A stretch of DNA of 63,925 bases, filler included. It is 8 parts of 8 records of this genome, joined end to end, with 100 filler letters (N's around TTAATTAATTAA, not from the genome) between each part and the next. Parts side by side here need not be neighbours in the genome. Positions count along the whole stretch, not along the records: positions 28,660 to 39,951 come from SRR2962707_2833; 7 more parts are not named here. One strand, given 5' to 3'. Position numbers and translations under genes: made by a program. Shown here piece after piece: positions 11,560 to 61,310 of the stretch. The notes beneath the pieces are model-generated. The model was not told the origin of the DNA and ran no database searches. It saw nothing but the letters and a program-made list of their open reading frames with translations. The stretch's first letter is position 1; each line of letters begins with the position of its first letter.

Positions 11560-11561
11560 GA

Positions 11562-11810
11562 TCACCCCCCCGCCACTGGTGGCAGCAGCACCAGATGACC
11601 GTTTTCCGGCAACGGGTCCGAGCGCAATAAAATGTCGGTGTCGCGCACCGCGGCGCACTGATCCAGGCGCGGTTGCAGGGCCGGACACTGATCGGCCAGC
11701 ACGCTCAGTGCCTCGGCCACCGTGGCCGGCGCCATTTCGGTGACGAGGGTGATACGCTCGCCACCCGCCAGCGGAATCAGTTCACCGTAAAGTTCAAAGG
11801 ACAGATTCAT
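11562..11810 (-). CDS. moaD: Molybdopterin synthase sulfur carrier
   Basis: About 82 aa ending LLPPVAGG (C-terminal Gly-Gly), located between moaA and moaE. Confidence 0.9.
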   Translation of the reverse strand: MNLSFELYGELIPLAGGERITLVTEMAPATVAEALSVLADQCPALQPRLDQCAAVRDTDILLRSDPLPENGHLVLLPPVAGG

Positions 11811-12814
11811 CAGCCTCCCATCCCGTGCATGGTAATTGGCCGGTCCACCGGGCCGGGCGTGGCCGCGTAGCCGGCGTCCTTGTGCCAGACTCTCTGTTCG
11901 ATGCGACGCCGCAGCTGGGCCTCGCTTTCCCCGCCGCGCAGCGGCGTCAGCAGATCGTGCCCCTGACGGGCGAACAGACAGGTGTAAAGATGCCCGTTGG
12001 CGGTCAGCCGCAGCCGGTCGCAATCGGCGCAAAAGGGCCGGGTCACGGTGGAGATCACGCCCAGGGTGTAGCGCTCATCGAGTCGGTATTCGGTGGCCGG
12101 GGCCGCCCCGCGGGGCAGTGCCTCGATCCGATAGTGGCCGGCCAGCGTATCGAGAATGCGAGCCTCGGACACCACCTGCTCCTCACGCCAGCGGCCCGGT
12201 TCGTCCAGCGGCATGTATTCGATGAAGCGCAATGGCAGATCACGGGCCTTGGCCCAGTGGGTCAGCGGCAGGATCTGGTCGTCGTTATACCCCTGTATCA
12301 GCACCGCGTTCAGTTTCACCGGCAGGCCGCTGTCGCGGGCCTTTTCGATCCCCGCCAGCACCGGCGCCAGCGGGCGGCGGGTAAGCGCCTGGAAACGGCC
12401 TTCGTCCACCGCGTCCAGACTAATGTTCAGATCGTCCAGGCCAGCCTCGATCAGGTCATCGAGCAATGCCGGCAAGCGGGTGCCGTTGGTGGTCATCGAC
12501 AGCCGCTTCAACCCATGCTCACGCAACCGGGACAGTGCCGCCACGCACGCCACCACATCCTTGCGCAGCAGCGGCTCGCCGCCGGTCAGGCGCAGCTCTT
12601 CAATACCGTTGTCCACGAACAGAGTCGCCAGCCGCAGCAGTTCCTCCCGGTCCATCAGTTCCCGCCCGGGCAGCCATTGCGGGTGTTCCGGCATGCAATA
12701 CCGGCAACGGAAGTTGCAGCGGTCGGTCAGTGACAAGCGCAGCTTGCGTTTGACCCGGCCGAAACGGTCCTGCAACGGCTCTTTTACCAACAACGGCTCA
12801 AAGGCTACGCCCAT
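11810..12814 (-). CDS. moaA: GTP 3',8-cyclase (radical SAM)
   Basis: DRFGR, LRLSLTDRCNFRCRYCMP, FCADCDRLRLTA and C-terminal MHGMGG. Confidence 0.96.
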   Translation of the reverse strand: MGVAFEPLLVKEPLQDRFGRVKRKLRLSLTDRCNFRCRYCMPEHPQWLPGRELMDREELLRLATLFVDNGIEELRLTGGEPLLRKDVVACVAALSRLREHGLKRLSMTTNGTRLPALLDDLIEAGLDDLNISLDAVDEGRFQALTRRPLAPVLAGIEKARDSGLPVKLNAVLIQGYNDDQILPLTHWAKARDLPLRFIEYMPLDEPGRWREEQVVSEARILDTLAGHYRIEALPRGAAPATEYRLDERYTLGVISTVTRPFCADCDRLRLTANGHLYTCLFARQGHDLLTPLRGGESEAQLRRRIEQRVWHKDAGYAATPGPVDRPITMHGMGG

Positions 12815-12816
12815 GA

Positions 12817-13410
12817 TCAGTCTCCCCGGCTCAGACGGGCACAAGCGTCGGCCACTTCCGCGGGGTTGTTCAAACTCCACAGCGGCTCCGGCTGCACGTC
12901 GGAAAAGTCCACCGGCCGCGCACCGATGGTGGCGAACCAGCGACGCGGCGCCCGCTCGCCATGCTCCAGCGCTTCGGCGAGCCCGCTTTCCAGATCGCGA
13001 TTCAGCAAGCAGCACAAATACTGCCCCTGACCATGCGCCTCAGCATACACTGCCCGCAAGCCTTGCAGCTTGGCCTGGATCATTAAACGGGGCAGCAGAT
13101 CGTCGGGCAAGGTCACCGCATCACAGGGGAGAATAAGCACCCACGGAGTGGAGGCCGTGCGTAACGCGGCCAGAATACCGGCCAGGGGCCCACGAAAGTC
13201 CGGCCAGGGGTCACTGGCCACCGGCACACCCAATGCCTGATAGGCACGCAGATTACGATTGGCCACGATCAGTCTCGCCGTTCCGGCGGGCACCGCTTGC
13301 AGCACCCGCTCCACCAGGCTGCGGCCCAATACCGGAATCAGGCCCTTGTCCACACCACCGAGCCGGCGTCCCTGGCCACCCGCGAGGATCGCAACGGTCA
13401 CGTCCTCCAT
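12817..13410 (-). CDS. mobA: Molybdenum cofactor guanylyltransferase
   Basis: ILAGGQGRRLGGVDKGL, GPLAGI and PCD motifs. Confidence 0.93.
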   Translation of the reverse strand: MEDVTVAILAGGQGRRLGGVDKGLIPVLGRSLVERVLQAVPAGTARLIVANRNLRAYQALGVPVASDPWPDFRGPLAGILAALRTASTPWVLILPCDAVTLPDDLLPRLMIQAKLQGLRAVYAEAHGQGQYLCCLLNRDLESGLAEALEHGERAPRRWFATIGARPVDFSDVQPEPLWSLNNPAEVADACARLSRGD

Positions 13411-16106: not shown

Positions 16107-17249
16107 GTTCCCACCTCCGCCAGCGCATCCGCCTCGACGCCGAAAGTGTCCAGCAGCGTCCGAACCATGGGCTCGCAACCGCCACAACCGGTGGCGGCGC
16201 CGGTACATTGCTTGATCGCCGCCAGATCACAGTGCCCCTCGGCGATGGCCTGGCACAAGGCTCCCTTGGTCACATTCTGGCACTGGCACAGCGTGGCACT
16301 GTCCGGCAACCGGGTGACATCGAGGGCCGGCGCGGCGCCCTGGGCGGCGGGCAGGATCAATTGCTCCGGCGTTTCCGGCAACGCCATGTCATTGAGCATC
16401 AGTTGCAACAAGGTGTTGTATTCCCGTGCGTCCCCCACCAACACGCCGCCCAGCAGGCGACGACCGTCCTCGCTGACCACCAGCTTCTTGTAAATCTGCT
16501 TGCGCTCGTCCTCGTAGCGATAACAGCAGGCTCCCGGCGTGCTGGCATGGGCATCCCCCAGGGACGCCACGTCCACGCCCATCAATTTCAATTTGGTGGA
16601 CATATCGGCGCCGGTGAACGGTACCGCCAATGTTTCATCACGCCGATGCCGCAAATGACTGACGGCGGCGCGCGCCATCTCGTAACCTGGCGCCACCAGG
16701 CCATAGATGCGCCCGCCCCAGAGCGCGCACTCGCCGATGGCGTAAACATCAGGATCGGATGTGCGGCAGTGATTATCGATGACAATCCCGCCGCGCTCTC
16801 CCACCGCCAGCCCGGCGTCACGGGCCAGCGTGTCCTGGGGGCGAATGCCGGCGGAAAATACCACCAGATCCGCTTCCAAGTGCCCGCCGTCGGCGAAGTT
16901 GAGACGATGACGGTAAAACTCCCCGTCGATGATTTCCGTGGTGTTCATTCCGGTATGCACGAACACGCCGAGCTGTTCGATCTTGCGGCGCAGCAGCGCG
17001 CCGCCGCCGTCGTCCACCTGCACCGCCATCAGGCGCGGCGCGAATTCCACCACATGGGTTTGCAGGCCGATATCGCGCAGGGCTTTGGCCGCTTCGAGAC
17101 CGAGCAGGCCACCGCCTATCACCGCGCCCACTTCCGCATCCCGCCCGGATGCCATGATCGCTTCCAGATCCTCGATGGTGCGGTACACCAGGCAACTGGG
17201 GCGGCCCCGCCCCGGCACCGGCGGCACGAACGGATAGGACCCGGTGGCC
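16103..17249 (-). CDS. NirB-like FAD/NADH oxidoreductase ending after one BFD 2Fe-2S domain; probable electron-transfer subunit (5'-truncated)
   Basis: VIGGGLLGLEAA, YAIGEC, TKLKLMGVDV and CQC..ATGCGGC. The stop overlaps the nasA ATG (ATGA). Confidence 0.82.
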
Positions 17250-17349
17250 NNNNNNNNNNNNNNNNNNNNNNNNNNNNNNNNNNNNNNNNNNNNTTAATTA
17301 ATTAANNNNNNNNNNNNNNNNNNNNNNNNNNNNNNNNNNNNNNNNNNNN
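17250..17349. other. Artificial contig spacer
   Basis: N run + TTAATTAATTAA + N run. Confidence 0.99.
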
Positions 17350-28559: not shown

Positions 28560-28659
28560 NNNNNNNNNNNNNNNNNNNNNNNNNNNNNNNNNNNNNNNNN
28601 NNNTTAATTAATTAANNNNNNNNNNNNNNNNNNNNNNNNNNNNNNNNNNNNNNNNNNNN
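28560..28659. other. Artificial contig spacer
   Basis: N run + TTAATTAATTAA + N run. Confidence 0.99.
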
Positions 28660-28909
28660 CAACACCCTTTTTCGTAAATCTGTCATTTTCTTTGACCAAA
28701 CGGGAAAAATCCGTCGGCCCGTATTACGAAAGCCCGGAAAGCCGCGATCTTGAGCAATTTGGAGGCCGAAGGGTTTCCAATATGAGGCTGATGGAGATCT
28801 CCGGAGCAGTTCCTCATCCGCAGCCTTCGACAGCCACAGGCATATATAAAAATATCTTTCACAAATGAATATCTCGAATTAGGCTTTGATCAACATAAGG
28901 GAGAGAGTG

Positions 28910-30040
28910 GTGACTGTTCGTGTTGAATTGAGAGGGATGACCTGGTCCGATCCGCGCGGATATGATCCGGTCGTTGCAGCAGCCAGTGCCTTCGCGGCAA
29001 CGCACCCGGGCATTACCATCACCTGGGACAAGCGATCGCTGCAGGGGTTTGAGACAACGCCTGTTGATGAACTCGCAGCAAACTATGATCTGATGGTGAT
29101 CGATCACCCTCATGTCGGTTCGGTGGCTGATCAGGGCTGCCTTCTGCCGTTTGAGACCCACGCCAGCGAAGATGCTCTGGGGGAACTCGCCAACCAGTCT
29201 GTCGGCCGCAGCTTCCAGAGCTATTTCCTGCATGGCAAGCAATGGGCCCTGCCGATTGATGCCGCGACGCAAGTTCAGGCCCACCGTGCCGACTTGTCAC
29301 CGCGCGTCCAGAGCTGGACAGACGTGATCCGCAAGGCCGAGGACGGACATGTGATCTGGCCTCTTCGATCGCCGCATGTGCTGATGAGTTTCTACACGCT
29401 GACGGCAAATCTCGGCCATCCCTGCGCAACAAGCTATGGCGATCTCATCGACAGCCGAACCGGGCTGCAGGTTTTCGAGCAGTTGTGCGCAGTCTCACGA
29501 CATATGGATGAGGCCTTTTACACCATGGACCCGATCGCAGTTCTGGATGAACTGTCCCAGTCCGACCACTATCACCTTGCGCCGCTTGTCTATCTCTACA
29601 AGGGTTATGCCAATGAGGGCTACCGCGCCAACCGGATCAGCTTTACCGACATGCCGGTGCTCGGACGCAACGGACCTTTGGGGTCGGCCCTTGGCGGCAC
29701 GGGAATCGCAATCTCGTCAAAGACCGCTCACCCGGAACTCTGCACTGAATTCGCCCTGTGGCTGGCCGGCGCAGAATGTCAGTCCGCACTCTATGTCAAA
29801 GCCAACGGCCAGCCGGGAAATGCACTGGCCTGGAGCAATCCAATCGTCAACGCTCCCGTGCTTGATGCCTATTACAACACCCGTCTGACCCACGAGACTG
29901 CCTGGCTGCGCCCGCGCCATGACGGCTATATGCGGTTTCAGGAAGAAGGCTCGGAGATCGTCGCCGATGCATTGCGCGGCCGCATGCAGCCCGAAACGGC
30001 AGTGGATCGGCTCAATGAGCGGTTTCGCGCCAGCTTCTGA
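28910..30040 (+). CDS. Sugar-type ABC solute-binding-fold protein with no evident signal peptide
   Basis: LRGMTW..PRG, YDLMVIDHP, ALPIDAA and LGGTGIAISS. GTG start (28907 or 28910) follows AAGGGAGAG. Confidence 0.72.
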   Translation: MTVRVELRGMTWSDPRGYDPVVAAASAFAATHPGITITWDKRSLQGFETTPVDELAANYDLMVIDHPHVGSVADQGCLLPFETHASEDALGELANQSVGRSFQSYFLHGKQWALPIDAATQVQAHRADLSPRVQSWTDVIRKAEDGHVIWPLRSPHVLMSFYTLTANLGHPCATSYGDLIDSRTGLQVFEQLCAVSRHMDEAFYTMDPIAVLDELSQSDHYHLAPLVYLYKGYANEGYRANRISFTDMPVLGRNGPLGSALGGTGIAISSKTAHPELCTEFALWLAGAECQSALYVKANGQPGNALAWSNPIVNAPVLDAYYNTRLTHETAWLRPRHDGYMRFQEEGSEIVADALRGRMQPETAVDRLNERFRASF

Positions 30041-30113
30041 TACGATTTGCGAAAACCGGCAGCCGGGTGGTTTGAAGCATGCAACAGCGCATCACTGCAC
30101 TTCGGCAACACGA

Positions 30114-31550
30114 TCAATCAGGGTTTTTCCCATGCAAGCAACCAGCGGCGACCAGTGTCCCCGCGGCGTCGCCGGCGACAGAGCCGAACCCAATGGCCGT
30201 CAACAGGCCGTTGCCGGACAGATAGCCCGACACATCGGGACCGGAAACACCGCAGGCCGCCCCGCCCCCGGCAAACAGGTTGGCGAAGGGCGTGCCGTCT
30301 TCGCGTACCACCCGGGCCTGGTCATCGATCATCAACCCGCCCTGGGTGTGAAACAGCGCCCCTGTCACCTTCACCGCATAAAACGGCGCGGCCAGTGCCG
30401 GTTTGCCGGTGAAATCACGGCCAAACGGATCTGCGGCTTCACCGGATTGACAGCTCGCCACCTCGGCCAGCGTCGCTTTCAGCGCCGCCTCGGGCAGGCC
30501 AATGACGCGCGCAAGCTCACCCACGTCTGCCGCCTCGCGGATGGCCCCGCCGGCCATTGCCTCCTGGTAATCCGGAAAGCCCTTGGCAAAGGTGTGCAGC
30601 CGCGCATCAAAAATGTTCCAGGCAATGCCACCCGGCTGCGCCAACACATTGACGGCCTGCTCCGAATAGCCGCCATGCTCATTGGAAAAGCGCGCACCGT
30701 CCGCGTTGACGTGAATGCCCCCCTCCATCATCAGCGCCCAGGAAATCAGGATGCCATGTGGATGGGCCAGCGAGCCGTGCCCCTGATAGCCTGAAAGATG
30801 ATTGATGCACGCGCCCAGCGTCTCGCCCCAGATCAGCGCATCCCCGGTATTGCCCTGATGACCGTAATAAAGCCCGTCCGCGATTTCAGGGATATGCTGG
30901 CGCACCAGTTCGGGATTGCCGCCAAAGCCGTTGCAAGCGAGCACCAGAGCGCCGCAACCGAGAATTTCCGTAGCCCCATCCGGCCGGGTGATTTCGACCG
31001 CTGCAATCCTGTCTCCATCCGCTGAATACAATTTGGTCGCATGCGCTTCCGTGACAACCGCTATGCCCGCCGCCTCGACTGCAGCCAGCAACCGTGCTTC
31101 CAGCGCGGCCCCGGTCTTCTCGGGCACCGCGTGCATTCTGTGCCGCGAATGACCGGGATAGAGGAAATCATCGAGCACGATCCATTCGAGCCCATGGGCG
31201 TCAGCCAGCCATTCAAGCGCCGGGCCAATACTGACGCTGGCAAGCCTTGCAAGCGAAGCCGCAGATTTGCCCTTGGATTTGGACAGAATGTCAGCCTCGA
31301 ACCGCAAAGGCGTGTCATCCTTAACGCCAATCGCACGCTGAAACCGGGTCGCGGGCGCGGGAACAAACCCCGACGACATCGAGGTCGAGCCGGAGGGTGA
31401 CGCGTCGCGCTCCAGCACCATGACTTCGGCGCCTGTCGATTTGGCGCGCAGTGCAGCGACCAACCCGCAGGCACCCGCGCCAATGACAACGACATCCACT
31501 TCCGCGTCGATGCGCTCGGGCATATCCCGCGTGATCAGACCGCCGCTCAT
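30114..31550 (-). CDS. FAD-dependent oxidoreductase (fumarate reductase flavoprotein / TcuA / KstD family)
   Basis: DVVVIGAGACG, GSTSMSSG, HTQGGL, NLFAGG and YLSGNGL. Confidence 0.85.
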   Translation of the reverse strand: MSGGLITRDMPERIDAEVDVVVIGAGACGLVAALRAKSTGAEVMVLERDASPSGSTSMSSGFVPAPATRFQRAIGVKDDTPLRFEADILSKSKGKSAASLARLASVSIGPALEWLADAHGLEWIVLDDFLYPGHSRHRMHAVPEKTGAALEARLLAAVEAAGIAVVTEAHATKLYSADGDRIAAVEITRPDGATEILGCGALVLACNGFGGNPELVRQHIPEIADGLYYGHQGNTGDALIWGETLGACINHLSGYQGHGSLAHPHGILISWALMMEGGIHVNADGARFSNEHGGYSEQAVNVLAQPGGIAWNIFDARLHTFAKGFPDYQEAMAGGAIREAADVGELARVIGLPEAALKATLAEVASCQSGEAADPFGRDFTGKPALAAPFYAVKVTGALFHTQGGLMIDDQARVVREDGTPFANLFAGGGAACGVSGPDVSGYLSGNGLLTAIGFGSVAGDAAGTLVAAGCLHGKNPD

Positions 31551-31551
31551 C

Positions 31552-32166
31552 TTAAGACCCCGATATCAGGGCTGCCGCCTCGCTGCAGGTCATGGTTTTC
31601 GCCACCGTCGACAAATCGCCAATGGCGCGCTCATGCGTCTCGGCAGAGAACGCCGCACAGCCATCACTGAGCACATAGGTCGAAAAATCCCGCACATGCG
31701 CATCGCGCACGGTGGACGCAACGCCGCCATTGGTGACGATACCGCAGACCATAAGCGTGTCGATGCCGGCCTTGCGCAACACCCATTCAAGCCGCGTCAT
31801 GTAAAACGCCGAATAGGCCACTTTCTCCACTGACAGATCGGGTGGCTGCAGCTCGTCCACCAGCGCATGCCCCCAGCTGCCCGGCGCAAAGTCGCCTTTG
31901 GTCAGAAACGGCCGGATTTGCTTGAGGTGCGGCGAGATGAATGGCTCCGCGCCCTTCCCCGGCACCAGCGTGAACTGCGTCGAGATGATCCAGCCGCCTT
32001 TTTGCCTGAGCGCATTGGCAACCGGCAACACTCGCGCCGGCAGCGCGGCAATATCCGCACTCTTCTGGTTGCCACGCGCATAGGCACCATCCGGATGCAG
32101 AAAGTCGTTTTGAAGATCCACAATCAGCAGGCCTGTGCGGGTCGGATCGAAGGGTTGAGCTGCCAT
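31552..32166 (-). CDS. Isochorismatase-family hydrolase
   Basis: LLIVDLQNDF, EKVAYSAF, GIVTNGGVASTVRDA and DGCAA. Confidence 0.88.
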   Translation of the reverse strand: MAAQPFDPTRTGLLIVDLQNDFLHPDGAYARGNQKSADIAALPARVLPVANALRQKGGWIISTQFTLVPGKGAEPFISPHLKQIRPFLTKGDFAPGSWGHALVDELQPPDLSVEKVAYSAFYMTRLEWVLRKAGIDTLMVCGIVTNGGVASTVRDAHVRDFSTYVLSDGCAAFSAETHERAIGDLSTVAKTMTCSEAAALISGS

Positions 32167-32169
32167 TGT

Positions 32170-34233
32170 CTAGGCTCCCTGAACGCTGCTGGGCGTGATC
32201 ACAAGATTGCCGAAGCCATCAACCACCGCGACAAGGCCGGGATCGACGAAGATCGTGGTATCGGCCTGTTCCAGCAGTGCCGGCCCGGAAACCGACGCCC
32301 CGACCGCAAGCGGCAAGCGTTCATAAACCCCGGCTTCGTGCCATGCACCATCGGCGAACACCCGGCGCGTTCCGATCCGGCAGGCATCCGCAGCCTTGCC
32401 ATCAACCGGGGCGAACACCGCCATGTCGAGTTTCGGCCGGCGGCCGATCACTGCAATCCGGTAATTCATCACTCGCATCGGGATTCCATCGAGAAGCCGG
32501 CCATAGGCTTCGCGATAGGCGTTTTCGAAGGCCTCACGGATATGCTGCGACGTCAGCCCCGATTGCGGAATCTCAATCGCAACATTCACCGTATGGGTCT
32601 GCCCGAGATAGAGCATGTCGAGTTCGACCACCCGGTCGACCCGCGCAAAGGCAACGCCGGCATTTTCCAGCAGCGCTTCGGTCTCGTCACCGACGCGCAC
32701 CATCTCTGCGCCAAGTTCTGCAGCATCAATCTGGTCGAGCAGCCGGTTGACCGTCTGCACCCGGTCGTGGCGCATGTCGGCCACGACGCAGCCGAGTGCC
32801 GAGGTGACACCCGGAAACCGCGGAACCAGTGCTGACGCCAGTCCCACTTCCTTGATCAGCGCGCCGGTGTGAAGAGCGCCGCCGCCGCCAAATGGCATGG
32901 CCGAGAATTTGGCCGGATCATGGCCTTTTTCGATCGACACCAGGCGGATGGCACCGGCCATCTTGGCATTGGCAAGCTGCAGGATCGCTTCCGCCGCCTG
33001 CTCGATGGACAGCCCCAGCGGTGCGGCCAGATGCGTATCGATCGCCTGCCGCGCGGCTTCAACATCAAGCCGCGCAAGTTTGCCTCCGATCGGGCGGTCA
33101 GGATTGATACGACCGAGCACCACATTGGCGTCGGTGACTGTCGGCCGGTCATTGCCGAGCCCATAGCAGACAGGACCTGGATCGGAACCAGCCGATTCCG
33201 GCCCGACCTGCAGCAACCCGCCCTTGTCGAGCGATGCAATCGAGCCACCGCCGGCGCCGATCGTGGTGATCTCGATCATCGGTGTGCGCACGACCATGCC
33301 GAAATCGATTGCCGTCTGCGCCGCCAGCGCTGCTTCATTGTTGGCGACCAGCGACACATCGAACGAGGTGCCGCCCATGTCGCAGGTAATGATGTTGTCA
33401 AAGCCCGCAGCCTTGGCAATCGCGGTGGCAGCGATCACGCCGGCAGCCGGACCCGAGAGCGCGGTCTTCACCGGATAGCGTTTGGCCATGTCGATAGACA
33501 TCACGCCGCCATTCGACTGCACGATCAGGATGTCGCCGCCAAAGCCCTTGGCCTCAAGCCCCTTTTCCAGCTTGTCGAGATAGGAGGAGACGACCGGCTG
33601 CAGATAGGCATTCAGCGTCGCCGTCGACAACCGCTCGAATTCGCGGATCTCCGGCAGGATTTCGGTTGCGGCCGTAACATAGGCATTGGGCCAGACAGAG
33701 CGCACGGCTTCAACAGCGCGTTTTTCGTTCTCGTTGTTGGCGTAGCCATTGATAAAGAACACGCAGACCGCCTCGCAGCCGGCCTCCGAGAGTTCAGTCG
33801 CCCGCGCCTTGACCTGCGCTTCATCAACGCCCTCAAGCACGGTGCCATCCGCCAGCACCCGCTCGCTGACCTCGACACGGTCGGGCCGCTCCACCACCGG
33901 GGTGAAGGATCCTTTCAGACCCCAGGTTGTCGGCCGGTCGCGGCGGCGCATTTCCAGCACATCGCGAAAGCCTTCGGTGGTGATGATGCCGGTGCGCGCG
34001 CCCTTGCGCTCAAGCAGCGCATTGGTGCCGACCGTCGTGCCGTGCACAACCGTGGAAATGTCGGCAAAATTGTCGACCTTGCTGGCAATGCCTTCGACAA
34101 AGCCTTTCGACTGGTCGCCGCGGGTGGAAGGCACCTTGGCGGTGAACACCTGGCCGTTGCTTTCGTCCAGAATGAAGACATCGGTAAAGGTGCCGCCAAC
34201 GTCGACGCCGATTACATAGGCTGGTCGTGTCAT
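32170..34233 (-). CDS. Hydantoinase A / oxoprolinase ATP-binding subunit
   Basis: GVDVGGTFTD, HGTTVGTNALLE, SGPAAG, DMGGTSFD, TIGAGGGS and FGGGGALH. Confidence 0.94.
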   Translation of the reverse strand: MTRPAYVIGVDVGGTFTDVFILDESNGQVFTAKVPSTRGDQSKGFVEGIASKVDNFADISTVVHGTTVGTNALLERKGARTGIITTEGFRDVLEMRRRDRPTTWGLKGSFTPVVERPDRVEVSERVLADGTVLEGVDEAQVKARATELSEAGCEAVCVFFINGYANNENEKRAVEAVRSVWPNAYVTAATEILPEIREFERLSTATLNAYLQPVVSSYLDKLEKGLEAKGFGGDILIVQSNGGVMSIDMAKRYPVKTALSGPAAGVIAATAIAKAAGFDNIITCDMGGTSFDVSLVANNEAALAAQTAIDFGMVVRTPMIEITTIGAGGGSIASLDKGGLLQVGPESAGSDPGPVCYGLGNDRPTVTDANVVLGRINPDRPIGGKLARLDVEAARQAIDTHLAAPLGLSIEQAAEAILQLANAKMAGAIRLVSIEKGHDPAKFSAMPFGGGGALHTGALIKEVGLASALVPRFPGVTSALGCVVADMRHDRVQTVNRLLDQIDAAELGAEMVRVGDETEALLENAGVAFARVDRVVELDMLYLGQTHTVNVAIEIPQSGLTSQHIREAFENAYREAYGRLLDGIPMRVMNYRIAVIGRRPKLDMAVFAPVDGKAADACRIGTRRVFADGAWHEAGVYERLPLAVGASVSGPALLEQADTTIFVDPGLVAVVDGFGNLVITPSSVQGA

Positions 34234-35966
34234 TGGGCTGTCTCCCGGGCGCGCAGATCTCGTGTGGCGGCTTCATCAACGGACCCATCGGGTCCGATAA
34301 CGACGCCGTAGTCGGCCTCGGTGTGCTCAGCCGTGATGTAGCCAAGGCGCAGATCGCGCGCGACGCTTTCAGGGTTTCGCTCAAGGGCGTGGCCGTAACC
34401 GCCGCCGCCCGGCGTTTCCAGCCGCAGCTTCTGGCCACGGTCAATGCGGACACCAACGATCTTTGAAGCCATTGGCGGCACGTGCTCGCCGTCTGCCTGC
34501 TCATAATGGAATGTGTTCAAGGCACCTGCCCCGCCACCAACTACGCCGGGCGGAGGAAACCGCCCGCGCTCGCCGAACAGAAAGACATCAGCCTGCTTTT
34601 CCAGAAGCTCGATCTCGTAGATCGCTCCGAGACCGCCGCGATATTCGCCCGCTCCCCCGGAATCCGGTCTGAGAGCCCACTTTGTAAACCTCACCGGATA
34701 GGCCGCCTCGAGGATTTCCAGTGGTGGTATCGTGGCCGTGGAGATCGGCGCATTGCCATGGTTGAGTCCGTCGCCGGCCCCATGCGCGCCGTGGCCGCCG
34801 CCGAAAAACGAGAACATCACCCAGCGCTGGCCATTGGCGCGGTGGCCGGCCAGCGACAGCGCGTTAATGGTGCCGTAAGCGCAGGCCATTGCCGGTTCGG
34901 GCGCAATCTGCGCCACCGCCTGAAACACCACGTCGATCAACCGCAGGATGGTCTCAGTATAGCCGCCAACCGGTTTTGGCGCGCGGACAGAGAGCAGCGA
35001 ATCCTCATCAATGCGGAATTCGACCGGCTCCAGCACCCCGGCATTGGCCGGCACATCACCGAAGATGTGCTTGAGCGCCACATAACAGGCGGCAATCGTC
35101 GTCGCCCGCGAGATGTTGACCGGACCGGCACAGGCTGGCGAGGAGCGCGAAAAATCCATCACCATTGTGTCGCCATCGATGATCAGGTCGAGCGCAATCT
35201 TCAGCGGCTCGTCATTGATGCCGTCATTGTCGAGAAAATCTTCCGCCGAGACCGTGCCCGAAGGCAGATTGGAGATCTGTGCTCGCATCATCTGCGCCGC
35301 GCGCGCCGTCAGCTCGCCCATGCAGTCGGCCACCTTGGCGTCGCCATACTCGTCGAGCAAAGCGTTCATGCGCTTTTCGCCAAGCTGCAGCGCATTGATC
35401 TGGCCGTTGAGATCGCCATACAGCGAGAGCGGCAACCGCGAGTTGGCAGACAGGATATCGACAATGTCCTGGCGGAACTCGCCGCGGTCATAGAGCTTGA
35501 CCGGCGGGATCAGCATGCCTTCCTGGAAACATTCGGTCGCGGCCGGATTGTAGTTGCCCGGCACATTGCCGCCGACATCATGCCAATGCCCGACGGACGC
35601 CAGGTAGCAGAACACTTCGCCATCGCGGAACACCGGCTTGACCAGCCGGAAGTCGGACAAATGCGTGCCGCCATCATAGGGATCATTGAAGATCCAGACG
35701 TCACCCTCGTGCACGCCACCCTGTTTGGCCGCCTTGTCGATCACCGCCTTGACCGCAAACGCCATGACGCCGACGAAAATCGGCAGACCGGATTTCCCCT
35801 GCACCAGCGTGTCGCCGGTACTGGCATCATAGATGCCGTGCGAGGCGTCATGCGCCTCCGCAATGATCGGATTGAACGCGGAGCGGAACAGCGTCGCGTC
35901 CATCTCATCGGCGATCTGTTCGAGGCGGCCCTTGAGGATGGCCAGTGTGACCGGATCAATCGTCAT
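34230..35966 (-). CDS. Hydantoinase B / oxoprolinase subunit
   Basis: DPVTLAI, NDPYDGGTHLSD, HWHDVGG, DSGGAGEYRGG and TPGGGGYG. Confidence 0.94.
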   Translation of the reverse strand: MTIDPVTLAILKGRLEQIADEMDATLFRSAFNPIIAEAHDASHGIYDASTGDTLVQGKSGLPIFVGVMAFAVKAVIDKAAKQGGVHEGDVWIFNDPYDGGTHLSDFRLVKPVFRDGEVFCYLASVGHWHDVGGNVPGNYNPAATECFQEGMLIPPVKLYDRGEFRQDIVDILSANSRLPLSLYGDLNGQINALQLGEKRMNALLDEYGDAKVADCMGELTARAAQMMRAQISNLPSGTVSAEDFLDNDGINDEPLKIALDLIIDGDTMVMDFSRSSPACAGPVNISRATTIAACYVALKHIFGDVPANAGVLEPVEFRIDEDSLLSVRAPKPVGGYTETILRLIDVVFQAVAQIAPEPAMACAYGTINALSLAGHRANGQRWVMFSFFGGGHGAHGAGDGLNHGNAPISTATIPPLEILEAAYPVRFTKWALRPDSGGAGEYRGGLGAIYEIELLEKQADVFLFGERGRFPPPGVVGGGAGALNTFHYEQADGEHVPPMASKIVGVRIDRGQKLRLETPGGGGYGHALERNPESVARDLRLGYITAEHTEADYGVVIGPDGSVDEAATRDLRARETAQ

Positions 35967-36832
35967 GCGTCGCTGTCTCCATCATAGCGCTTGCCGGTCG
36001 CGAGCAGATCATTCGTACCGATCACGCCATTCAACCCGGCGAAATCGAACATGCGGTTGCGGAAGGCCTCGTTTGAGCCTGATGCCGCCAGATTGGCGTA
36101 GTAGTCGCGCGCGGTTGCGGCGATGGCGCGCACGATTCCGCCCGGAAAGATGACGAAGCTGAAACCTAGTTCCTGCAGGCCGGCCGCATTGATGATCGGC
36201 GTCTTGCCGCCCTCCACCATGTTGGCCATCAGCGGCACCCGGCCACCGAAGCGTTTCACAATCTGATGGATCTCTTCCATCGATTGCGGCGCCTCGATGA
36301 ACAGCATGTCGGCCCCGGCCTCGACATAGGCCTCGGCCCGGTCCATCGCCGCATCGAAGCCTTCGACCGCGATGGCGTCAGTGCGGCCGATCACCAGCGT
36401 CTCATCCGACTGGCGGGCATCGCAAGCAGCCCGGATCTTGCCCGCCATCTCGCCCTTCGAGATCAGCGACTTTCCATCAAGATGGCCGCAGCGCTTCGGC
36501 ATAGTCTGATCTTCGAGCTGCAGCGCATTAGCGCCCATGCGTTCAAACACCCGCACCGTGCGTTGCACGTTGAGCGCGTTGCCAAAACCATTGTCGGCAT
36601 CAACGATGATCGGCAGCGTGATCCGGTCGCGCAACGCCGCGATGGTGTCGGCGACTTCACTCATCGAGACTAGTCCGATATCGGGTCGCCCAAACCGCGT
36701 GTAGGCGATGGATGCGCCCGACAGATAGACAGCCTCGGCGCCCGATTGTTCGGCGATCAGCCCTGTCAGAGCATCATAGACACCGGGTGCAAGCAGGATT
36801 TCCGCTTGGCCCAGCCGTTGTTTCAGGCTCAT
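35963..36832 (-). CDS. Isocitrate lyase/PEP mutase family C-C lyase (PrpB / 2,3-dimethylmalate lyase-like)
   Basis: PGVYD, YLSG, DADNGFG, EDQ..PKRCGH, GRTD and NMVEGGKTP. Confidence 0.9.
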   Translation of the reverse strand: MSLKQRLGQAEILLAPGVYDALTGLIAEQSGAEAVYLSGASIAYTRFGRPDIGLVSMSEVADTIAALRDRITLPIIVDADNGFGNALNVQRTVRVFERMGANALQLEDQTMPKRCGHLDGKSLISKGEMAGKIRAACDARQSDETLVIGRTDAIAVEGFDAAMDRAEAYVEAGADMLFIEAPQSMEEIHQIVKRFGGRVPLMANMVEGGKTPIINAAGLQELGFSFVIFPGGIVRAIAATARDYYANLAASGSNEAFRNRMFDFAGLNGVIGTNDLLATGKRYDGDSDA

Positions 36833-37335
36833 GCGCCTGCCTCCTTTGCGCGTTCCGCTGCGAAACGCTTTTTCAAATGCGGCACCAGCCCGCCATCGGC
36901 GAGCATCGGCTTGAGATTGTCCGGCAACGGCTCGAGCCGGACAGTTTGGTTTTTGCCGATCAATTGCAGTTCACCCGCGACCGGATCGAGCCCCGCGGCA
37001 TCACCATCAGCAATCCCCTCAACATCATCCGCAACCAGCACCGGCAGGCCGAGATTGAGAGCATTACGATAGAATATCCCGGCAAACGACTTGGCGACGA
37101 CACCGGCAACACCAAGATGCTTCAAGGCTTCCGCCGCCTGTTCACGTGACGACCCCATGCCGAAATTCTTGCCTGCCACGATCACGTCACCGGGTTTCAC
37201 CGATCCGGCGAAATCCGGCCGAGCCGATTCCAGGCAATGGGCGGCGAGCATGTCGAGACCGCCCTTCATGTACTGGCCCGGCGCCAGCTGGTCGGTATCG
37301 ATGTCATCGCCAAGAAGGAAAATCCGCCCGCTCAT
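36829..37335 (-). CDS. LeuD/HacB/DmdB-like small subunit
   Basis: DDIDTD, NFGMGSSREQA and SFAGIFYRNA. Confidence 0.9.
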   Translation of the reverse strand: MSGRIFLLGDDIDTDQLAPGQYMKGGLDMLAAHCLESARPDFAGSVKPGDVIVAGKNFGMGSSREQAAEALKHLGVAGVVAKSFAGIFYRNALNLGLPVLVADDVEGIADGDAAGLDPVAGELQLIGKNQTVRLEPLPDNLKPMLADGGLVPHLKKRFAAERAKEAGA

Positions 37336-38612
37336 GCCGCGCCCTCCGCGATCAGGAACTCGCGCGGATCGGCAATGCATCCGGTAACAGCGGATGCCGC
37401 CACCGTCAGCGGCGAGGCCAGCCAGACCTTTGAGGACGCTGCGCCCATGCGGCCCTGAAAATTGCGCGCGGTGGAGGAAATGCAGGTCACGTCTTCGCCA
37501 AGCCGGTCCGTGCCGTAGCCCGCGCAAATTCCACAGGCATTGGGCAGGATCTGCGCACCGGCATCCTCGAAGACGGCCATGATGCCCTCGTCCGCCGCGC
37601 GCTGCTGATCCCGCATCGAAGCGGGCGCAACCTTCAGCACAATGCCGGGCGCCAGCTTGCGGCCGCGAAGGATCGCCGCAGCGCCTTTCAGATCCTCATA
37701 TTTGGCCCCGGTGCAGGCACCGATATAGGCGACGTCAAAACTCGTTTCGGGTGCTTCAGTCACCGGCATCGCATTGGCCGGTGAGTGTGGGGCTGCCACT
37801 TGCGGTTCCAGCGTCGATGCATCGAAAACATGGTGCGCAGCGAGTTCCGCGCCCGGATCGGTCACAAACCCGCGCCAGTCACCAGCCGACCCGCTGACAC
37901 TGTCGAGATAGGCTTCGGTCGTCGCATCCGGCGCGATCAGCCCGGCCTGACCGCCAAGTTCGGCCGCCATGTTGGAAAGCGTCATCCGCTCCTGCATTGA
38001 CAGCGCCGCAATCGCCTCGCCAGTATATTCCACCGCCTGGTACTGTCCGCCATCCATGCCCAACTTGCCGCAAAGCGCCAGCATGATGTCCTTGGCGAGC
38101 ACGCCCGGTGAAAGCCGCCCCTGCCATTCGATCAGGATGGTGCCAGGGACCTTGAGCCAGATCTCGCCGGTGGCCAGAACGCCGGCCATTTCCGTGGCGC
38201 CGATGCCGAACATATAGGCCCCGAAGGCGCCACCTGTTGGTGAATGACTGTCTCCGCCGACAACAAGCATGCCGGGTTTCAAGTGTCCGCGTTCGGGCAG
38301 AACCACATGGCAGATGCCTTCGCCGTCGTGAAAAGCGACCTTGCGCTCCTTGGCCCAACGGCGGGTCAATTCGAGAATGTGCGCGCCCTCATCGGTATCG
38401 CCAGGCACGAAATGATCCGAAATCAGCACCACTTTCGAGGCATCGAACAGCCCAACACCAAGTTCCTGCAGGATCGGCTCGACCCGGCGCGGACCGCCCG
38501 AATCGTGGATCATGGCCAGATCGACACGAGCCGTAACCACTTCGCCCGGACGGACAATTTCCAGTCCGGCAGCGCGTGCAATGATCTTTTGAGCAAGCGT
38601 GGACGCCATCAT
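37332..38612 (-). CDS. LeuC/HacA/DmdA-like 4Fe-4S hydratase large subunit
   Basis: GICH, DSHS, IGACTG, CGICAG and STARNFQGRMG; short (~426 aa) type. Confidence 0.92.
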   Translation of the reverse strand: MMASTLAQKIIARAAGLEIVRPGEVVTARVDLAMIHDSGGPRRVEPILQELGVGLFDASKVVLISDHFVPGDTDEGAHILELTRRWAKERKVAFHDGEGICHVVLPERGHLKPGMLVVGGDSHSPTGGAFGAYMFGIGATEMAGVLATGEIWLKVPGTILIEWQGRLSPGVLAKDIMLALCGKLGMDGGQYQAVEYTGEAIAALSMQERMTLSNMAAELGGQAGLIAPDATTEAYLDSVSGSAGDWRGFVTDPGAELAAHHVFDASTLEPQVAAPHSPANAMPVTEAPETSFDVAYIGACTGAKYEDLKGAAAILRGRKLAPGIVLKVAPASMRDQQRAADEGIMAVFEDAGAQILPNACGICAGYGTDRLGEDVTCISSTARNFQGRMGAASSKVWLASPLTVAASAVTGCIADPREFLIAEGAA

Positions 38613-39313
38613 GCCAGTCCCAGATAGGAGCGCTGCAATTCCGGATCATCCATCAAATCGGCAGGAATGCCCGACAGCTTGATCTCGCCGTTCTCCATCA
38701 CGAAGGCACGATCCGCGATTTCCATGGATTGCAGCACATTCTGCTCGACCAGCAAAATGGTCAGCCCGTCCGTGTTAAGCTGCTTGATCAGCGAAAACAT
38801 CTCCTCGACCAGCAACGGCGACAGGCCGATCGACGGCTCATCGAGAATAAGCAGCAGAGGTTCGGCCATCATGCCCCGGCCAATGGCCAGCATCTGCTGC
38901 TCGCCACCCGACAAGGTGCCGGCGTTTTGCGAAAAGCGTTCCCGCAGACGCGGGAATATTTCTGCCACATGCTCGATGTTGCGGGTCCGGTTGGCCTTGC
39001 CACGCCGGTAGCTTCCGAGTTCGAGGTTTTCGCGCACCGTCATGTTGGGAAACACGTGTCGGCCTTCGGGAACCTGGATCAGCCCCTCGTCGACAATCGC
39101 CTGTGGCGAGAAACCCGCAATCGGCTTGCCCTCGAATGTGATCGCGCCGCTCCAGGGCTGCATCAGTCCGGAAACAACAGCCGAGAACGTCGTCTTGCCG
39201 ACGCCGTTTGAACCAAGCAGCGTGACGATTTCGCCCTTGCTGATCGACAGGTCGATGCCACGCAGCACTTCGACTGCACCATAACCGGCGCGCAGATTGG
39301 TAACTTCAAGCAC
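38609..39313 (-). CDS. Branched-chain-type ABC ATPase, LivF-like
   Basis: GSNGVGKT, VPEGR, LSGGEQQMLA, LDEPS and VEQN. Confidence 0.92.
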   Translation of the reverse strand: MLEVTNLRAGYGAVEVLRGIDLSISKGEIVTLLGSNGVGKTTFSAVVSGLMQPWSGAITFEGKPIAGFSPQAIVDEGLIQVPEGRHVFPNMTVRENLELGSYRRGKANRTRNIEHVAEIFPRLRERFSQNAGTLSGGEQQMLAIGRGMMAEPLLLILDEPSIGLSPLLVEEMFSLIKQLNTDGLTILLVEQNVLQSMEIADRAFVMENGEIKLSGIPADLMDDPELQRSYLGLA

Positions 39314-39951
39314 TGGCTGCCTCCCGCCTGGCAATGCGTTCGGCCATGCCCTTGCCGAGATAGGCTTCGATGACGTGGGGATCGGAGACCACATTCTTGG
39401 GTGGCCCTTCGGCGATGATCGCGCCCTGGTTCAGCACCCAGGTGTAATCCGAGAGACTCATCACTGCCTGCATCACATGTTCGATCAGCAAGATGGTTAC
39501 GCCCGCATCGCGGATGGCATTGATCACCGGAATCACATCGCGGATCTCCGACGGGTTGAGCCCGGCAAGCACCTCGTCAAACAGGATCATCTTCGGGTCT
39601 GTCGCCAAGGCCCGCGCCACTTCCAGCCGTTTGCGCCCGGCGACCGTCAGCGAACCGGCATCCATGTCGAGCCGGTCACCGAGACCGACCTGCTGAGCCA
39701 CCGCTTCGGCCTTGGCCAGCGCCTCGGCGCGGCCGCGGATCTTCAGATGCGCACCCACGGCAATGTTCTCCCGCACGGTCTGACCGGCGAACGGCTGCAC
39801 GGTCTGGAATGTGCGGATCATGCCACGCTTCGCGATCGCCTCGGGCGGCAAGCCCGTAATGTCTTCACCGAGAAACCGGACCGATCCGGAATCGGGCGTG
39901 TGGAAGCCGGTGATCAGCGCAAACAGCGTGGTCTTGCCGGCGCCGTTGGGG
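39306..39951 (-). CDS. Branched-chain-type ABC ATPase, LivG-like (5'-truncated)
   Basis: PNGAGKTT, RTFQ, DEVLAGL, IEH and EAYLG. Confidence 0.9.
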
Positions 39952-40051
39952 NNNNNNNNNNNNNNNNNNNNNNNNNNNNNNNNNNNNNNNNNNNNTTAAT
40001 TAATTAANNNNNNNNNNNNNNNNNNNNNNNNNNNNNNNNNNNNNNNNNNNN
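39952..40051. other. Artificial contig spacer
   Basis: N run + TTAATTAATTAA + N run. Confidence 0.99.
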
Positions 40052-45699: not shown

Positions 45700-45799
45700 N
45701 NNNNNNNNNNNNNNNNNNNNNNNNNNNNNNNNNNNNNNNNNNNTTAATTAATTAANNNNNNNNNNNNNNNNNNNNNNNNNNNNNNNNNNNNNNNNNNNN
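45700..45799. other. Artificial contig spacer
   Basis: N run + TTAATTAATTAA + N run. Confidence 0.99.
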
Positions 45800-51342: not shown

Positions 51343-51442
51343 NNNNNNNNNNNNNNNNNNNNNNNNNNNNNNNNNNNNNNNNNNNNTTAATTAATTAANN
51401 NNNNNNNNNNNNNNNNNNNNNNNNNNNNNNNNNNNNNNNNNN
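51343..51442. other. Artificial contig spacer
   Basis: N run + TTAATTAATTAA + N run. Confidence 0.99.
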
Positions 51443-58316: not shown

Positions 58317-58416
58317 NNNNNNNNNNNNNNNNNNNNNNNNNNNNNNNNNNNNNNNNNNNNTTAATTAATTAANNNNNNNNNNNNNNNNNNNNNNNNNNNN
58401 NNNNNNNNNNNNNNNN
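58317..58416. other. Artificial contig spacer
   Basis: N run + TTAATTAATTAA + N run. Confidence 0.99.
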
Positions 58417-58441
58417 CTCTCTCTCTCTCTCTCTCTCTCTC
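58417..58441. repeat. (CT)n microsatellite at the contig start
   Basis: Read directly. Confidence 0.9.
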
Positions 58442-61207: not shown

Positions 61208-61310
61208 GATGTTATGCAGATCTCTCTTTGGCACACCATCGTGATTCTTCACTACCGCAGCGGATCGCCTGTACGACACTCTGTTTCATCCGCGACTCTG
61301 CGACCATACA

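Follow-up and report, generated by a model that had tools for sequence, protein, structure and literature searches.

A conserved proteobacterial operon with a LeuCD-like hydratase, a PrpB-like lyase and an ATP-dependent ring opener, possibly for the catabolism of a cyclic imide or amide

What substrate would call upon an ATP-dependent ring opener, a protein with the fold of isochorismatase, a flavoprotein, a hydratase and a carbon-carbon lyase, all encoded side by side? The question is raised by a run of nine co-directional genes on the minus strand that occupies positions 30114-39951 of the window, meaning by this the whole stretch of 63,925 nucleotides analyzed here. As judged by open reading frame (ORF) calls and by matches to Pfam and NCBIfam, the run encodes, in order, two ATPases of an ATP-binding cassette (ABC) transporter (LivG and LivF type), a LeuC-like and a LeuD-like protein, a lyase of the isocitrate lyase/phosphoenolpyruvate mutase (ICL/PEPM) family, HyuB, HyuA, an isochorismatase-fold protein and a flavoprotein that binds flavin adenine dinucleotide (FAD). 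A preliminary description of this DNA had the families, their order and their common direction right, though it spoke of eight genes while listing nine. A pathway made of these enzymes is built from known families, contains two atypical members, and is as a pathway undescribed in the literature searched: full-text searches found no description of the gene set, which agrees with the preliminary description's failure to match it to any known route. I propose that the operon catabolizes a small cyclic imide or amide that bears a carboxylate, a reading drawn from the sequences to which I would give slightly better than an even chance.

The argument begins with whether the genes belong together at all. 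Relatives of the lyase were sought in one genome per prokaryotic species, and at least 538 of them were found among the 600 pattern matches listed; the counts of loci given throughout refer to the best 80 of these relatives, 53 of which have full flanks of 10 kb. The closest locus, that of Hoeflea sp. AS60, encodes all nine proteins collinearly and with 84-96% identity. There the full operon consists of 13 genes: those for a GntR/UTRA regulator, a binding protein, LivHMGF, the LeuCD-like pair, the lyase, HyuBA, the isochorismatase-like protein and the flavoprotein. The genes that in the window would lie beyond the end of the contig are therefore seen in Hoeflea, namely a regulator of the GntR/UTRA (HutC) type, a Peripla_BP_6 binding protein, LivH and LivM, and so the solute-binding protein that the preliminary description held to be missing upstream is accounted for, together with the permeases.

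Farther afield, where flanks are full, the lyase has close to it a gene for HyuB in 50 of the 53 loci, for HyuA and for the isochorismatase-like protein in 51 each, for the flavoprotein in 44 and for a LeuC-family protein in 46. In 63 of the 80 loci, and across alpha-, beta- and gammaproteobacteria, the gene for the lyase is accompanied by those for HyuB, HyuA and the isochorismatase-like protein; the complete set of nine, each with an identity of at least 45%, is found in 21 of the 80. The preliminary description had let its case depend on co-occurrence in other genomes, and co-occurrence is what is found. The collinear operon of Hoeflea and the recurrence in dozens of genomes put the grouping of these genes beyond chance: the set has been conserved as a unit, is placed under a GntR/UTRA regulator and is served by an importer of the LIV-type ABC class or, in some relatives, by a tripartite ATP-independent periplasmic (TRAP) transporter.

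Within the unit there is considerable freedom. The order of genes takes at least five arrangements, in all of which hyuB, hyuA and the isochorismatase-like gene are adjacent and in the same order. About one locus in four has, instead of the short LeuCD pair, a LeuCD of the bacterial type that is just 35-40% identical. Nine loci have TRAP genes (DctPQ, in some cases with DctM) in place of the LIV-type importer, a replacement that points to a carboxylate as substrate. The nearest solved relative of the TRAP binding protein is 4MNC; the solved relatives of the LIV-type binding protein bear only generic names. Relatives are found on 81 plasmid or chromid records, with complete annotated versions of the operon in Sulfitobacter pontiacus, Azospirillum oryzae, Roseomonas and Paraburkholderia. 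The hosts include marine bacteria of the Roseobacter group, Stappiaceae and Rhizobiaceae, and the plant-associated genera Azospirillum, Paraburkholderia, Burkholderia and Variovorax. One record, titled Oceanobacillus sp. HTM 045 (locus L035), carries a complete operon of the proteobacterial type, 58-76% identical, in an assembly labelled as that of a Firmicute; this points to a record that is contaminated or mislabelled.

What, then, do the individual enzymes say of the chemistry? The LeuC/LeuD-like pair belongs to the aconitase family and can be placed there at the level of a subfamily that includes the homoaconitases; it is predicted to be a two-subunit Fe-S hydratase or dehydratase. The LeuC-like protein exceeds the cut-offs of NF001614 (507 vs 385) and of TIGR01343, hacA_fam (432 vs 386), and falls below those of the LeuC equivalogs TIGR02083 (350 vs 611) and TIGR00170 (252 vs 560). 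The LeuD-like protein behaves in the same way, passing TIGR02087 (183 vs 109) and falling below the LeuD equivalogs TIGR02084 (134 vs 246) and TIGR00171 (48 vs 116). The solved structures nearest to the large subunit are the isopropylmalate isomerase (IPMI)/citramalate isomerase of M. jannaschii and homoaconitase. The large subunit has the three Cys ligands, Cys300, Cys360 and Cys363, and the small one the motif GSSRE. A loop of the small subunit governs substrate recognition, according to an extract of one study (PMC7308503). In the LeuD-like protein, aligned with 2PKP (YLRT), 3VBA (YLVY) and 1V7L, this loop reads YMKG, and the position of the homoaconitase arginine holds Lys or Arg in 25 of 33 orthologues. 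As a read-out of the substrate the loop was tried and put aside, the basic residue being frequent and not invariant, hence a weak hint.

The lyase retains every catalytic column of PrpB, the Mg-binding Asp pair, EDQ and K-x-C-G-H included. D78, D80, E107, D108, Q109, K113, C115, G116 and H117 are invariant in an alignment with the E. coli enzyme, from which a C-C lyase reaction is to be expected. It is nonetheless not PrpB, as judged by the models TIGR02317 (290.0 bits vs 354.4) and NF008455 (243.8 vs 353), both of which it fails to reach, and by its identity of 37% to E. coli PrpB and 43% to the Diaphorobacter lyase, whose gene belongs to a true prpC-acnD-prpF operon. A maximum-likelihood tree, the comparison with PrpB that the preliminary description had in mind, sets the lyases of the cluster apart from the prp-operon lyase, and a fork uniting 14 rows other than PrpB has support of 86/84; the branch to E. 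coli PrpB is very long (2.92) and its placement is unsure. Among the families that recur beside the lyase in the 80 loci, none gives a prp context (prpC, prpD or acnD/prpF).

Hoeflea sp. AS60 has two further paralogues of the lyase, each within a different module. In one of these (L092, G001:C1:190001-210000, at about 3700-13050) a second HyuB/HyuA pair is divergent from a second LeuC-LeuD-lyase set, the module continues with genes of the 3-hydroxyacyl-CoA-dehydrogenase-like and histidinol-dehydrogenase families, and a LacI regulator and a TAXI-TRAP transporter are nearby; its proteins are 29-41% identical to those of the window. In the other (L093, G001:C1:212001-230000, at 6836-10829) a GntR/UTRA gene is divergent from a gene of the arylmalonate-decarboxylase family, the lyase paralogue (40% identity), a Cys-containing hydrolase of the isochorismatase family and a short-chain dehydrogenase/reductase (SDR). 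Lyases that stand alone, in L015, L076, L079 and on a plasmid from Comamonadaceae, have no useful context around them.

Both subunits of the presumed ring opener are full length: Hydantoinase_B matches residues 4-526 of HyuB with 569.5 bits, and HyuA has all three of its Pfam domains. They are not the equivalog of caprolactamase CapAB, the models for which are matched with scores of 532 (HyuA, alpha subunit) and 335 (HyuB, beta subunit) against a cut-off of 1000. The solved structures nearest to HyuB are 6YRA_B and the N-methylhydantoinase 7HK5.

The gene after hyuA encodes the first of the atypical enzymes. The best characterized relatives of the isochorismatase-fold protein are hydrolases of ureides (RutB, biuret hydrolase and the triuret-type cysteine hydrolases), and when it is aligned with E. 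coli RutB and EntB it is seen to have kept Asp17 and Lys115 and to have Gly148 where RutB has Cys166. The sequence at the site of the nucleophile is TNGG in all 66 orthologues from related loci. With glycine in place of cysteine, the protein cannot act as a cysteine amidase that forms a thioester. EntB, a true isochorismatase, has Gly at the same aligned position (the identity being only 22-27%), and true isochorismatases attack a vinyl ether by protonation of its C=C bond. Genes of the isochorismate pathway were not found among the recurrent neighbours of the 80 loci.

The second atypical enzyme, the flavoprotein, has no haem domain; among solved structures it comes closest to the flavin domains of Shewanella Fcc3 and of urocanate reductase (131-151 bits). 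The preliminary description took it for an enzyme of the TcuA type, and this cannot be maintained: the TcuA models give scores of 148.9 against a cut-off of 369 and 105.7 against 372.6, most residues of the dicarboxylate site are absent, and no TcuB-like gene is among the recurrent neighbours of the 80 loci. TIGR01813, the flavocytochrome c model, is likewise not reached (221 vs 285). The active site of E. coli FrdA presumably comprises His232, Arg287, His355 and Arg390, positions that were checked in an alignment with FrdA and NadB, to be taken with caution at 22-25% identity and with an indel at the site. His258 of the flavoprotein corresponds to FrdA His232, and is kept. FrdA His355 is replaced by Phe400, with His401 adjacent. 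The catalytic Arg287, part of a PRD motif in FrdA, aligns to QPGG, a stretch that is variable in 54 orthologues and reads QRD in only 2; the flavoprotein's own Arg287 aligns to FrdA Arg262 and not to the catalytic residue. The proton relay Glu245/Arg248 has become Trp/Met, and Arg390, the second arginine to hold the substrate, is Tyr443 in 52 of 52 orthologues. From its sequence the flavoprotein is not an enzyme of the fumarate, succinate, aspartate or tricarballylate type. It may reasonably be inferred that its substrate has at most one carboxylate beside the bond to be oxidized or reduced, perhaps with a ring carbonyl opposite.

Relatives that have lost or exchanged parts of the operon are instructive. 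On a plasmid of Burkholderia plantarii, LeuC, LeuD, the flavoprotein and the lyase are 56, 50, 50 and 56% identical to those of the window, and the module adjoins a GntR gene, two PuuE-like genes of the polysaccharide-deacetylase family and a gene of the isochorismatase family that does contain Cys. HyuAB is absent. PuuE-like proteins include a proven cyclic imidase, BpIH, as an extract of one report has it (PMC11424739). On a plasmid of Methylobacterium nodulans the opener is of the dihydroorotase/allantoinase/hydantoinase family, the hydrolase again contains Cys, and two PrpD-family genes stand in place of LeuCD. In Variovorax sp. RA8 the isochorismatase-fold gene encodes no Cys at the site (Ala is there) and comes, with the genes for the lyase and LeuCD, after those for an LLM-class monooxygenase resembling RutA/SfnG, a flavin reductase and an SDR; that cluster (L087, plasmid 2, 9942-21289) also has a gene for RibBA and is flanked by insertion sequence elements. 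Tistrella mobilis pTM1 (L097, 5985-18605), which lacks LeuCD, has genes for GntR, a LIV-type ABC transporter, a PrpD-family protein, the lyase, a tautomerase, the flavoprotein, two proteins of the Asp/Glu-racemase family and a second PrpD-family protein; this variant may take up an acid that has already been opened.

Some loci have accessory genes. A gene that fuses a 4-oxalocrotonate tautomerase (Met-Pro start, hence Pro1) to a SnoaL-like domain is present in 29 of the 80 loci; it was not found in the genome of Hoeflea sp. AS60 with one protein query, which does not prove absence. A PrpD-family gene, the nearest solved relatives of which are iminodisuccinate (IDS) epimerase and cis-aconitate decarboxylase, is present in 15, and a gene resembling hydantoin/allantoin racemase in 7. 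Isomerases and epimerases of this kind suggest intermediates with stereocentres and a movable double bond. Taken across the variants, what may be called the nitrogen part (the ring opener and the isochorismatase-fold enzyme) is exchangeable among families of enzymes for cyclic imides and ureides, and the carbon part (flavoprotein, hydratase and lyase) is stable. The non-orthologous replacement of HyuAB, with lyase and hydratase kept, fits the opening of a nitrogen-containing ring followed by hydration and cleavage of a substituted diacid.

The gene associations, family memberships and residue patterns given above are observations; the substrate, and each chemical step that can be drawn from them, are proposals. 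A solute would be imported, and HyuAB would open an amide bond of its ring at the cost of ATP. The Cys-less isochorismatase-fold protein would complete the removal of nitrogen from the opened product, perhaps by acid/base catalysis that protonates the C=C of an enamide or enamine or by hydrolysis of a substituted maleamate in which the neighbouring carboxylate of the substrate itself serves as nucleophile. The flavoprotein would introduce a C=C bond if the ring or acid is saturated. By the addition of water the LeuCD-like hydratase would then turn a di- or tricarboxylate with a cis-ene into a substituted malate, and the PrpB-like lyase would split this into two acids, the first of them a 2-oxo acid that is probably pyruvate. 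In outline this is the logic of the preliminary description, which still offers the best reading and which the swaps of ring opener fit. Its details have had to change: the flavoprotein is not of the TcuA type, the isochorismatase-like protein is no ordinary cysteine amidase, and LeuCD passes models of the subfamily only.

What might the second acid be? A gene for an acyl-CoA dehydrogenase (ACAD) resembling glutaryl-CoA dehydrogenase directly follows that of the flavoprotein, in the same direction, in three Cohaesibacter-like genomes (L043, L046 and L053), and in two of them (L046 and L053) a CaiB-type CoA-transferase gene comes next. In the island of B. plantarii, too, an ACAD gene follows the flavoprotein, then a CaiB-type transferase, and genes for electron-transfer flavoprotein are present. 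The best model for the B. plantarii transferase is succinate-glutarate CoA-transferase (542 bits, where the cut-off is 750 and the second-best model gives 318), and JGI and UniRef give the automatic name glutaryl-CoA dehydrogenase to homologues of the ACAD that are 83-90% identical. The four cases probably represent two independent events. They suggest that glutarate may be the second product of the lyase. If so, the substrate of the lyase would be like homoisocitrate or 2-methylhomoisocitrate and the hydratase would be a homoaconitase or methylhomoaconitase, a reading that is consistent with the passage of LeuC through hacA_fam and with the Lys/Arg found in most LeuD loops.

A natural compound that would meet this description is hematinic acid, 3-(2-carboxyethyl)-4-methyl-maleimide, or its dihydro form, the succinimide. 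Hematinic acid is an oxidation product of haem, bilirubin and chlorophyll. It occurs in leaves as a product of chlorophyll and haem, according to part of one article (PMC7318184). From either form the pathway would yield pyruvate, glutarate and NH3: the flavoprotein would desaturate the succinimide, HyuAB (elsewhere the PuuE-like imidases) would open the imide, the isochorismatase-fold enzyme would hydrolyze the dialkylmaleamate with the help of the substrate's own adjacent carboxylate, LeuCD would hydrate the product in the manner of a methylhomoaconitase, the lyase would release pyruvate and glutarate, and glutaryl-CoA dehydrogenase would consume the latter. Catabolism of the dihydro form would require the flavoprotein, and this form could account for accessory genes of the epimerase type. 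The preliminary description had already put alkyl-maleimides from tetrapyrrole breakdown among its speculative substrates. As the name of one particular substrate, the suggestion is speculative, with perhaps a small chance of being correct. Were a fragment of a tetrapyrrole indeed the substrate, the operon would be the missing bacterial route by which monopyrrole fragments of oxidized chlorophyll, haem and bilins are mineralized, and the fate of chlorophyll and haem nitrogen would become directly testable.

There are several observations that sit badly with a cyclic imide or amide, and with hematinic acid in particular. The opening of an imide needs no ATP. With no nucleophile at the site of the family's cysteine, the hydrolysis of a half-amide that the imide route demands has no precedent. 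The flavoprotein is without the catalytic arginine, the Glu/Arg relay and the second arginine of FrdA in an alignment of 22-25% identity with an indel at that place, so that even the type of its reaction is uncertain. The residue of the LeuD loop is variable, being Gly, Ser, Ala or His in 8 of the 33 orthologues. The link to glutarate comes from 3 of the 80 loci, in related genomes, and from 1 of 10 plasmid regions, and both proteins fall below NCBIfam cut-offs. The racemase, PuuE-like and allantoinase-like enzymes fit a ureide as well as they do an imide. Finally, there is a Paraburkholderia version without the flavoprotein and the Tistrella version without the ring opener; such absences may mean that the family serves several related substrates.

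It is natural to ask whether a different substrate would do better. One that is unlikely but deserves attention is a ureide: from a 5-substituted hydantoin or a dihydropyrimidine, carboxylated in either case, HyuAB would make an N-carbamoyl (dehydro)amino acid in the way of N-methylhydantoinase, the isochorismatase-fold protein would remove the ureido group as N-carbamoylsarcosine amidase and RutB do, possibly through hydrolysis of an enamide that releases urea, and the acid would go on to the flavoprotein, LeuCD and the lyase. This would make sense of an N-methylhydantoinase among the nearest solved relatives of HyuB, of the kinship between the isochorismatase-fold protein and ureide hydrolases, of the racemase-like gene in 7 of 80 loci, and of variant openers that resemble allantoinase (the PuuE-like and AllB/dihydropyrimidinase-like ones) or RutA (accompanied by a RutF-like reductase). 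But the cysteine for carbamoyl hydrolysis is absent, and I could name no natural carboxylated hydantoin that would give rise to a substituted malate: hydantoin-5-acetate, hydantoin-5-propionate and dihydroorotate would lead to aspartate, glutamate or oxaloacetate, and the core of LeuCD and lyase would be needless. Moreover, ureides with an endocyclic C=C open to trans (fumarate-type) acids, whereas enzymes of the aconitase family use cis isomers. Somewhat less likely still is a lactam with an acetate group beside the ring carbonyl, such as 2-oxindole-3-acetate (oxidized auxin) or 2-oxopyrrolidine-3-acetate, from which the flavoprotein would make an exocyclic ene, HyuAB an amino-substituted aryl- or alkyl-maleate and LeuCD its hydrated form, with the nitrogen kept on a product of the lyase. 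True lactams are what ATP-dependent HyuAB enzymes open, and caprolactamase is the best relative in both NCBIfam and the Protein Data Bank; a flavoprotein in which Tyr has taken the place of one carboxylate-binding arginine suits a substrate that pairs a single carboxylate with a ring carbonyl; 4MNC, the nearest solved relative of the TRAP binding protein, may have benzoylformate as its ligand; and, with no recognizable deaminase in the cluster and no nucleophile in the isochorismatase-fold protein, the nitrogen may leave on a product. Against this, the isochorismatase-fold protein is left without a role, the variant openers (PuuE-like and of the dihydroorotase family) act on imides or ureides and not on simple lactams, and the normal Cys amidase of the B. 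plantarii and M. nodulans variants implies an amide intermediate. No gene for auxin catabolism is among the recurring neighbours of the 80 loci or in the annotations of 10 plasmid/chromid regions, where no targeted search for iac or iad was made, and no literature was found that links oxindole-3-acetic acid with hydantoinase.

One might also doubt that there is a single pathway. Two unrelated modules could be co-located, one for branched acids (LeuCD and the lyase acting on citramalate or methylisocitrate-like acids, for example) and one that scavenges nitrogen from lactams or hydantoins (HyuAB, the isochorismatase-like protein and the flavoprotein). Tistrella, with its lyase, PrpD-like protein, flavoprotein and tautomerase but no ring opener, could be cited in favor, as could the orphan lyases of L015, L076 and L079 and the Hoeflea module of GntR, arylmalonate decarboxylase, lyase and isochorismatase-like hydrolase without HyuAB. 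It is too much to ask of two unrelated modules, however, that lyase, HyuB, HyuA and the isochorismatase-like protein be kept together in 63 of 80 loci through several gene orders, that the genes of the window be translationally coupled by ATGA overlaps, and that what replaces HyuAB be other ring openers beside the same lyase and LeuCD; I regard the idea as improbable. Hardly any weight at all can be given to the notion that these are housekeeping enzymes, LeuCD of leucine biosynthesis and PrpB of the methylcitrate cycle, for which similarity at the level of families is all that speaks. The equivalog models for LeuC, LeuD and PrpB all remain below cut-off. Elsewhere in the genome of Hoeflea sp. 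AS60 are two more genes of the LeuC family (with open frames of 473 and 494 amino acids) and the lyase paralogues; the true prp-operon lyase, 43% identical, lies outside the clade of the cluster; and leuA, leuB, prpC and prpD are not nearby, either at the Hoeflea locus, where transporter and catabolic genes are the neighbours, or among the recurrent neighbours of the 80 loci. Model scores, paralogues, lyase tree and context in this way set the operon apart from the housekeeping genes, with which, on the terms of the preliminary description, it should not cluster. The reading that I retain is that of a cyclic imide or amide.

How does such a pathway compare with those already known? A close parallel to its carbon part is the end of nicotinate fermentation in Eubacterium barkeri, the last steps of which are catalyzed by DmdAB (2,3-dimethylmaleate hydratase) and Dml (2,3-dimethylmalate lyase). 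There too a short two-subunit hydratase of the aconitase family is followed by an ICL/PEPM lyase with the motif K(K/R)CGH, taking a cis-alkylmaleate through an alkylmalate to a 2-oxo acid and an acid. As judged by gene context, the operon differs in its partners (HyuAB, the Cys-less isochorismatase-fold protein and the flavoprotein), and it differs in its hosts, which are aerobic Alpha- and Betaproteobacteria. The families that recur as neighbours in the 80 loci do not include nicotinate dehydrogenase, enamidase, the B12-dependent 2-methyleneglutarate mutase or methylitaconate isomerase. The tail of the methylcitrate cycle (PrpD, aconitase or AcnD-PrpF, then PrpB) shares the succession of dehydratase/hydratase and PrpB-like lyase, and some variants of the operon add PrpD-family genes, but there is no prpC and those PrpD-family proteins are nearer to IDS epimerase and cis-aconitate decarboxylase.

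Parallels to the nitrogen part are found elsewhere. Blastobacter sp. A17p-4 is said to catabolize cyclic imides by means of an imidase and a half-amidase. Ring opening and conversion of the half-amide to a dicarboxylate are common to both, and in B. plantarii PuuE-like genes and a Cys hydrolase stand before the LeuCD-flavoprotein-lyase module; in the window, by contrast, the opener is the ATP-dependent HyuAB and the supposed amidase has no nucleophile. The known pathway leads, moreover, either to succinate or through maleate to D-malate, and involves neither an Fe-S hydratase nor a C-C lyase. In the degradation of creatinine by way of N-methylhydantoin, an ATP-dependent N-methylhydantoinase of the HyuAB type is followed by N-carbamoylsarcosine amidase, which has the isochorismatase fold and a Cys. 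The operon has the same direct succession of HyuAB pair and isochorismatase-fold enzyme, but with Gly for Cys and no sarcosine oxidase, and LeuCD, lyase and flavoprotein are without counterpart there. Variovorax RA8 is reminiscent of the Rut pyrimidine pathway, with its monooxygenase RutA, reductase RutF and ureidoacrylate amidohydrolase RutB, in that an isochorismatase-fold gene is coupled there to genes for a flavin reductase and a monooxygenase resembling RutA/SfnG. The resemblance does not extend to the models for RutB (73 vs 378) and RutA (193 vs 498), far above the scores obtained, nor to Cys166, replaced by Gly or Ala, and RutC, RutD and RutE are absent. As for Fcc3, UrdA and TcuA, the flavoprotein shares their FAD_binding_2 fold and differs in having no haem domain and no conservation of the active-site arginines.

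The identity of the substrate matters beyond this one locus. Several hundred species at the least possess the gene set (at least 538 relatives of the lyase, and 81 plasmid/chromid records), and to know the substrate would be to name a common environmental nutrient. It would also assign functions to a Cys-less protein of the isochorismatase fold and to a fumarate-reductase-like flavoprotein without a dicarboxylate site, and it would correct thousands of annotations as leuC/leuD, rutB or isocitrate lyase family.

The coordinates of the genes are collected in Table 1. The window is divided into eight contigs by seven spacers, each made of 44 N, 12 A/T bases and 44 N, at 10129-10228, 17250-17349, 28560-28659, 39952-40051, 45700-45799, 51343-51442 and 58317-58416; genes on the two sides of a spacer are consequently not neighbours in the genome. 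The contig with the operon extends from 28660 to 39951 (11,292 bases, 61% G+C). With its end at 39951, livG is cut at its 5' end, the part that remains encoding a product 94% identical to its counterpart in Hoeflea sp. AS60, and the upstream transporter genes lie off the contig.

Table 1. Genes of the operon, listed from upstream to downstream, with positions in the window.
Feature	Position	Strand	Support
livG-type ABC ATPase, partial	39306-39951	-	Pfam ABC_tran and BCA_ABC_TP_C; LivG model 176 bits (below cut-off)
livF-type ABC ATPase	38609-39313	-	ABC_tran; LivF model 232 bits (below cut-off)
Short (archaeal-type) LeuC-like large subunit, aconitase family	37332-38612	-	Pfam Aconitase
LeuD-like small subunit	36829-37335	-	TIGR02087 (LeuD/DmdB family) above cut-off
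ICL/PEP-mutase-family C-C lyase	35963-36832	-	Pfam PEP_mutase; KRCGH at residues 113-117
HyuB subunit, ATP-dependent hydantoinase/oxoprolinase/lactamase type	34230-35966	-	Hydantoinase_B
HyuA subunit	32170-34233	-	Hydant_A_N, Hydantoinase_A and Hydant_A_C
Isochorismatase-fold protein without Cys nucleophile	31552-32166	-	Pfam Isochorismatase
Soluble FAD flavoprotein, fumarate/urocanate-reductase family	30114-31550	-	FAD_binding_2

The close coupling reported in the preliminary description is borne out, with one addition. ATGA overlaps join the genes at five junctions (livF/leuC, leuC/leuD, leuD/lyase, lyase/hyuB and hyuB/hyuA), hyuA is separated from the isochorismatase-like gene by 3 nt and the latter from the flavoprotein gene by 1 nt; to these is added an overlap of 8 nt between livG and livF (GTGCTTGA), provided that livF begins with GTG at 39313. 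From the sequence this is the probable start, the longest form of the ORF beginning with ATG at 39394. A simple scan of 29900-30300 revealed no terminator or promoter. Among 23 sequencing runs compared by shared sequence words, no RNA run was listed as a match and none contained as many as half of the words. A convergent ORF of 384 amino acids on the plus strand, at 28886-30040, has a TTG start and a weak match to SBP_bac_8/SBP_bac_1. It matches no NCBIfam model, and none of the 80 related loci contains its like; it has probably nothing to do with the operon and is not counted as part of it.

The other contigs of the window offer a few observations of their own. The one at 10229-17249 has, at 11810-16208, a MoaA-like radical-SAM gene and a gene for a molybdopterin oxidoreductase of 932 amino acids with a BFD-like [2Fe-2S] domain, which resembles assimilatory nitrate reductase and has no relation to the operon. 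The contig at 40052-45699, like those at 1-10128 and 58417-63925, has a lower G+C content (0.51-0.57), few matches to Pfam and ORFs of eukaryotic appearance, among them a major facilitator superfamily protein with long acidic tails and a dephospho-CoA kinase of 407 amino acids with an N-terminal extension. It may be that bacterial DNA and that of a eukaryotic host or alga are mixed in the assembly. Near 45690 there is a His-Thr/dinucleotide repeat.

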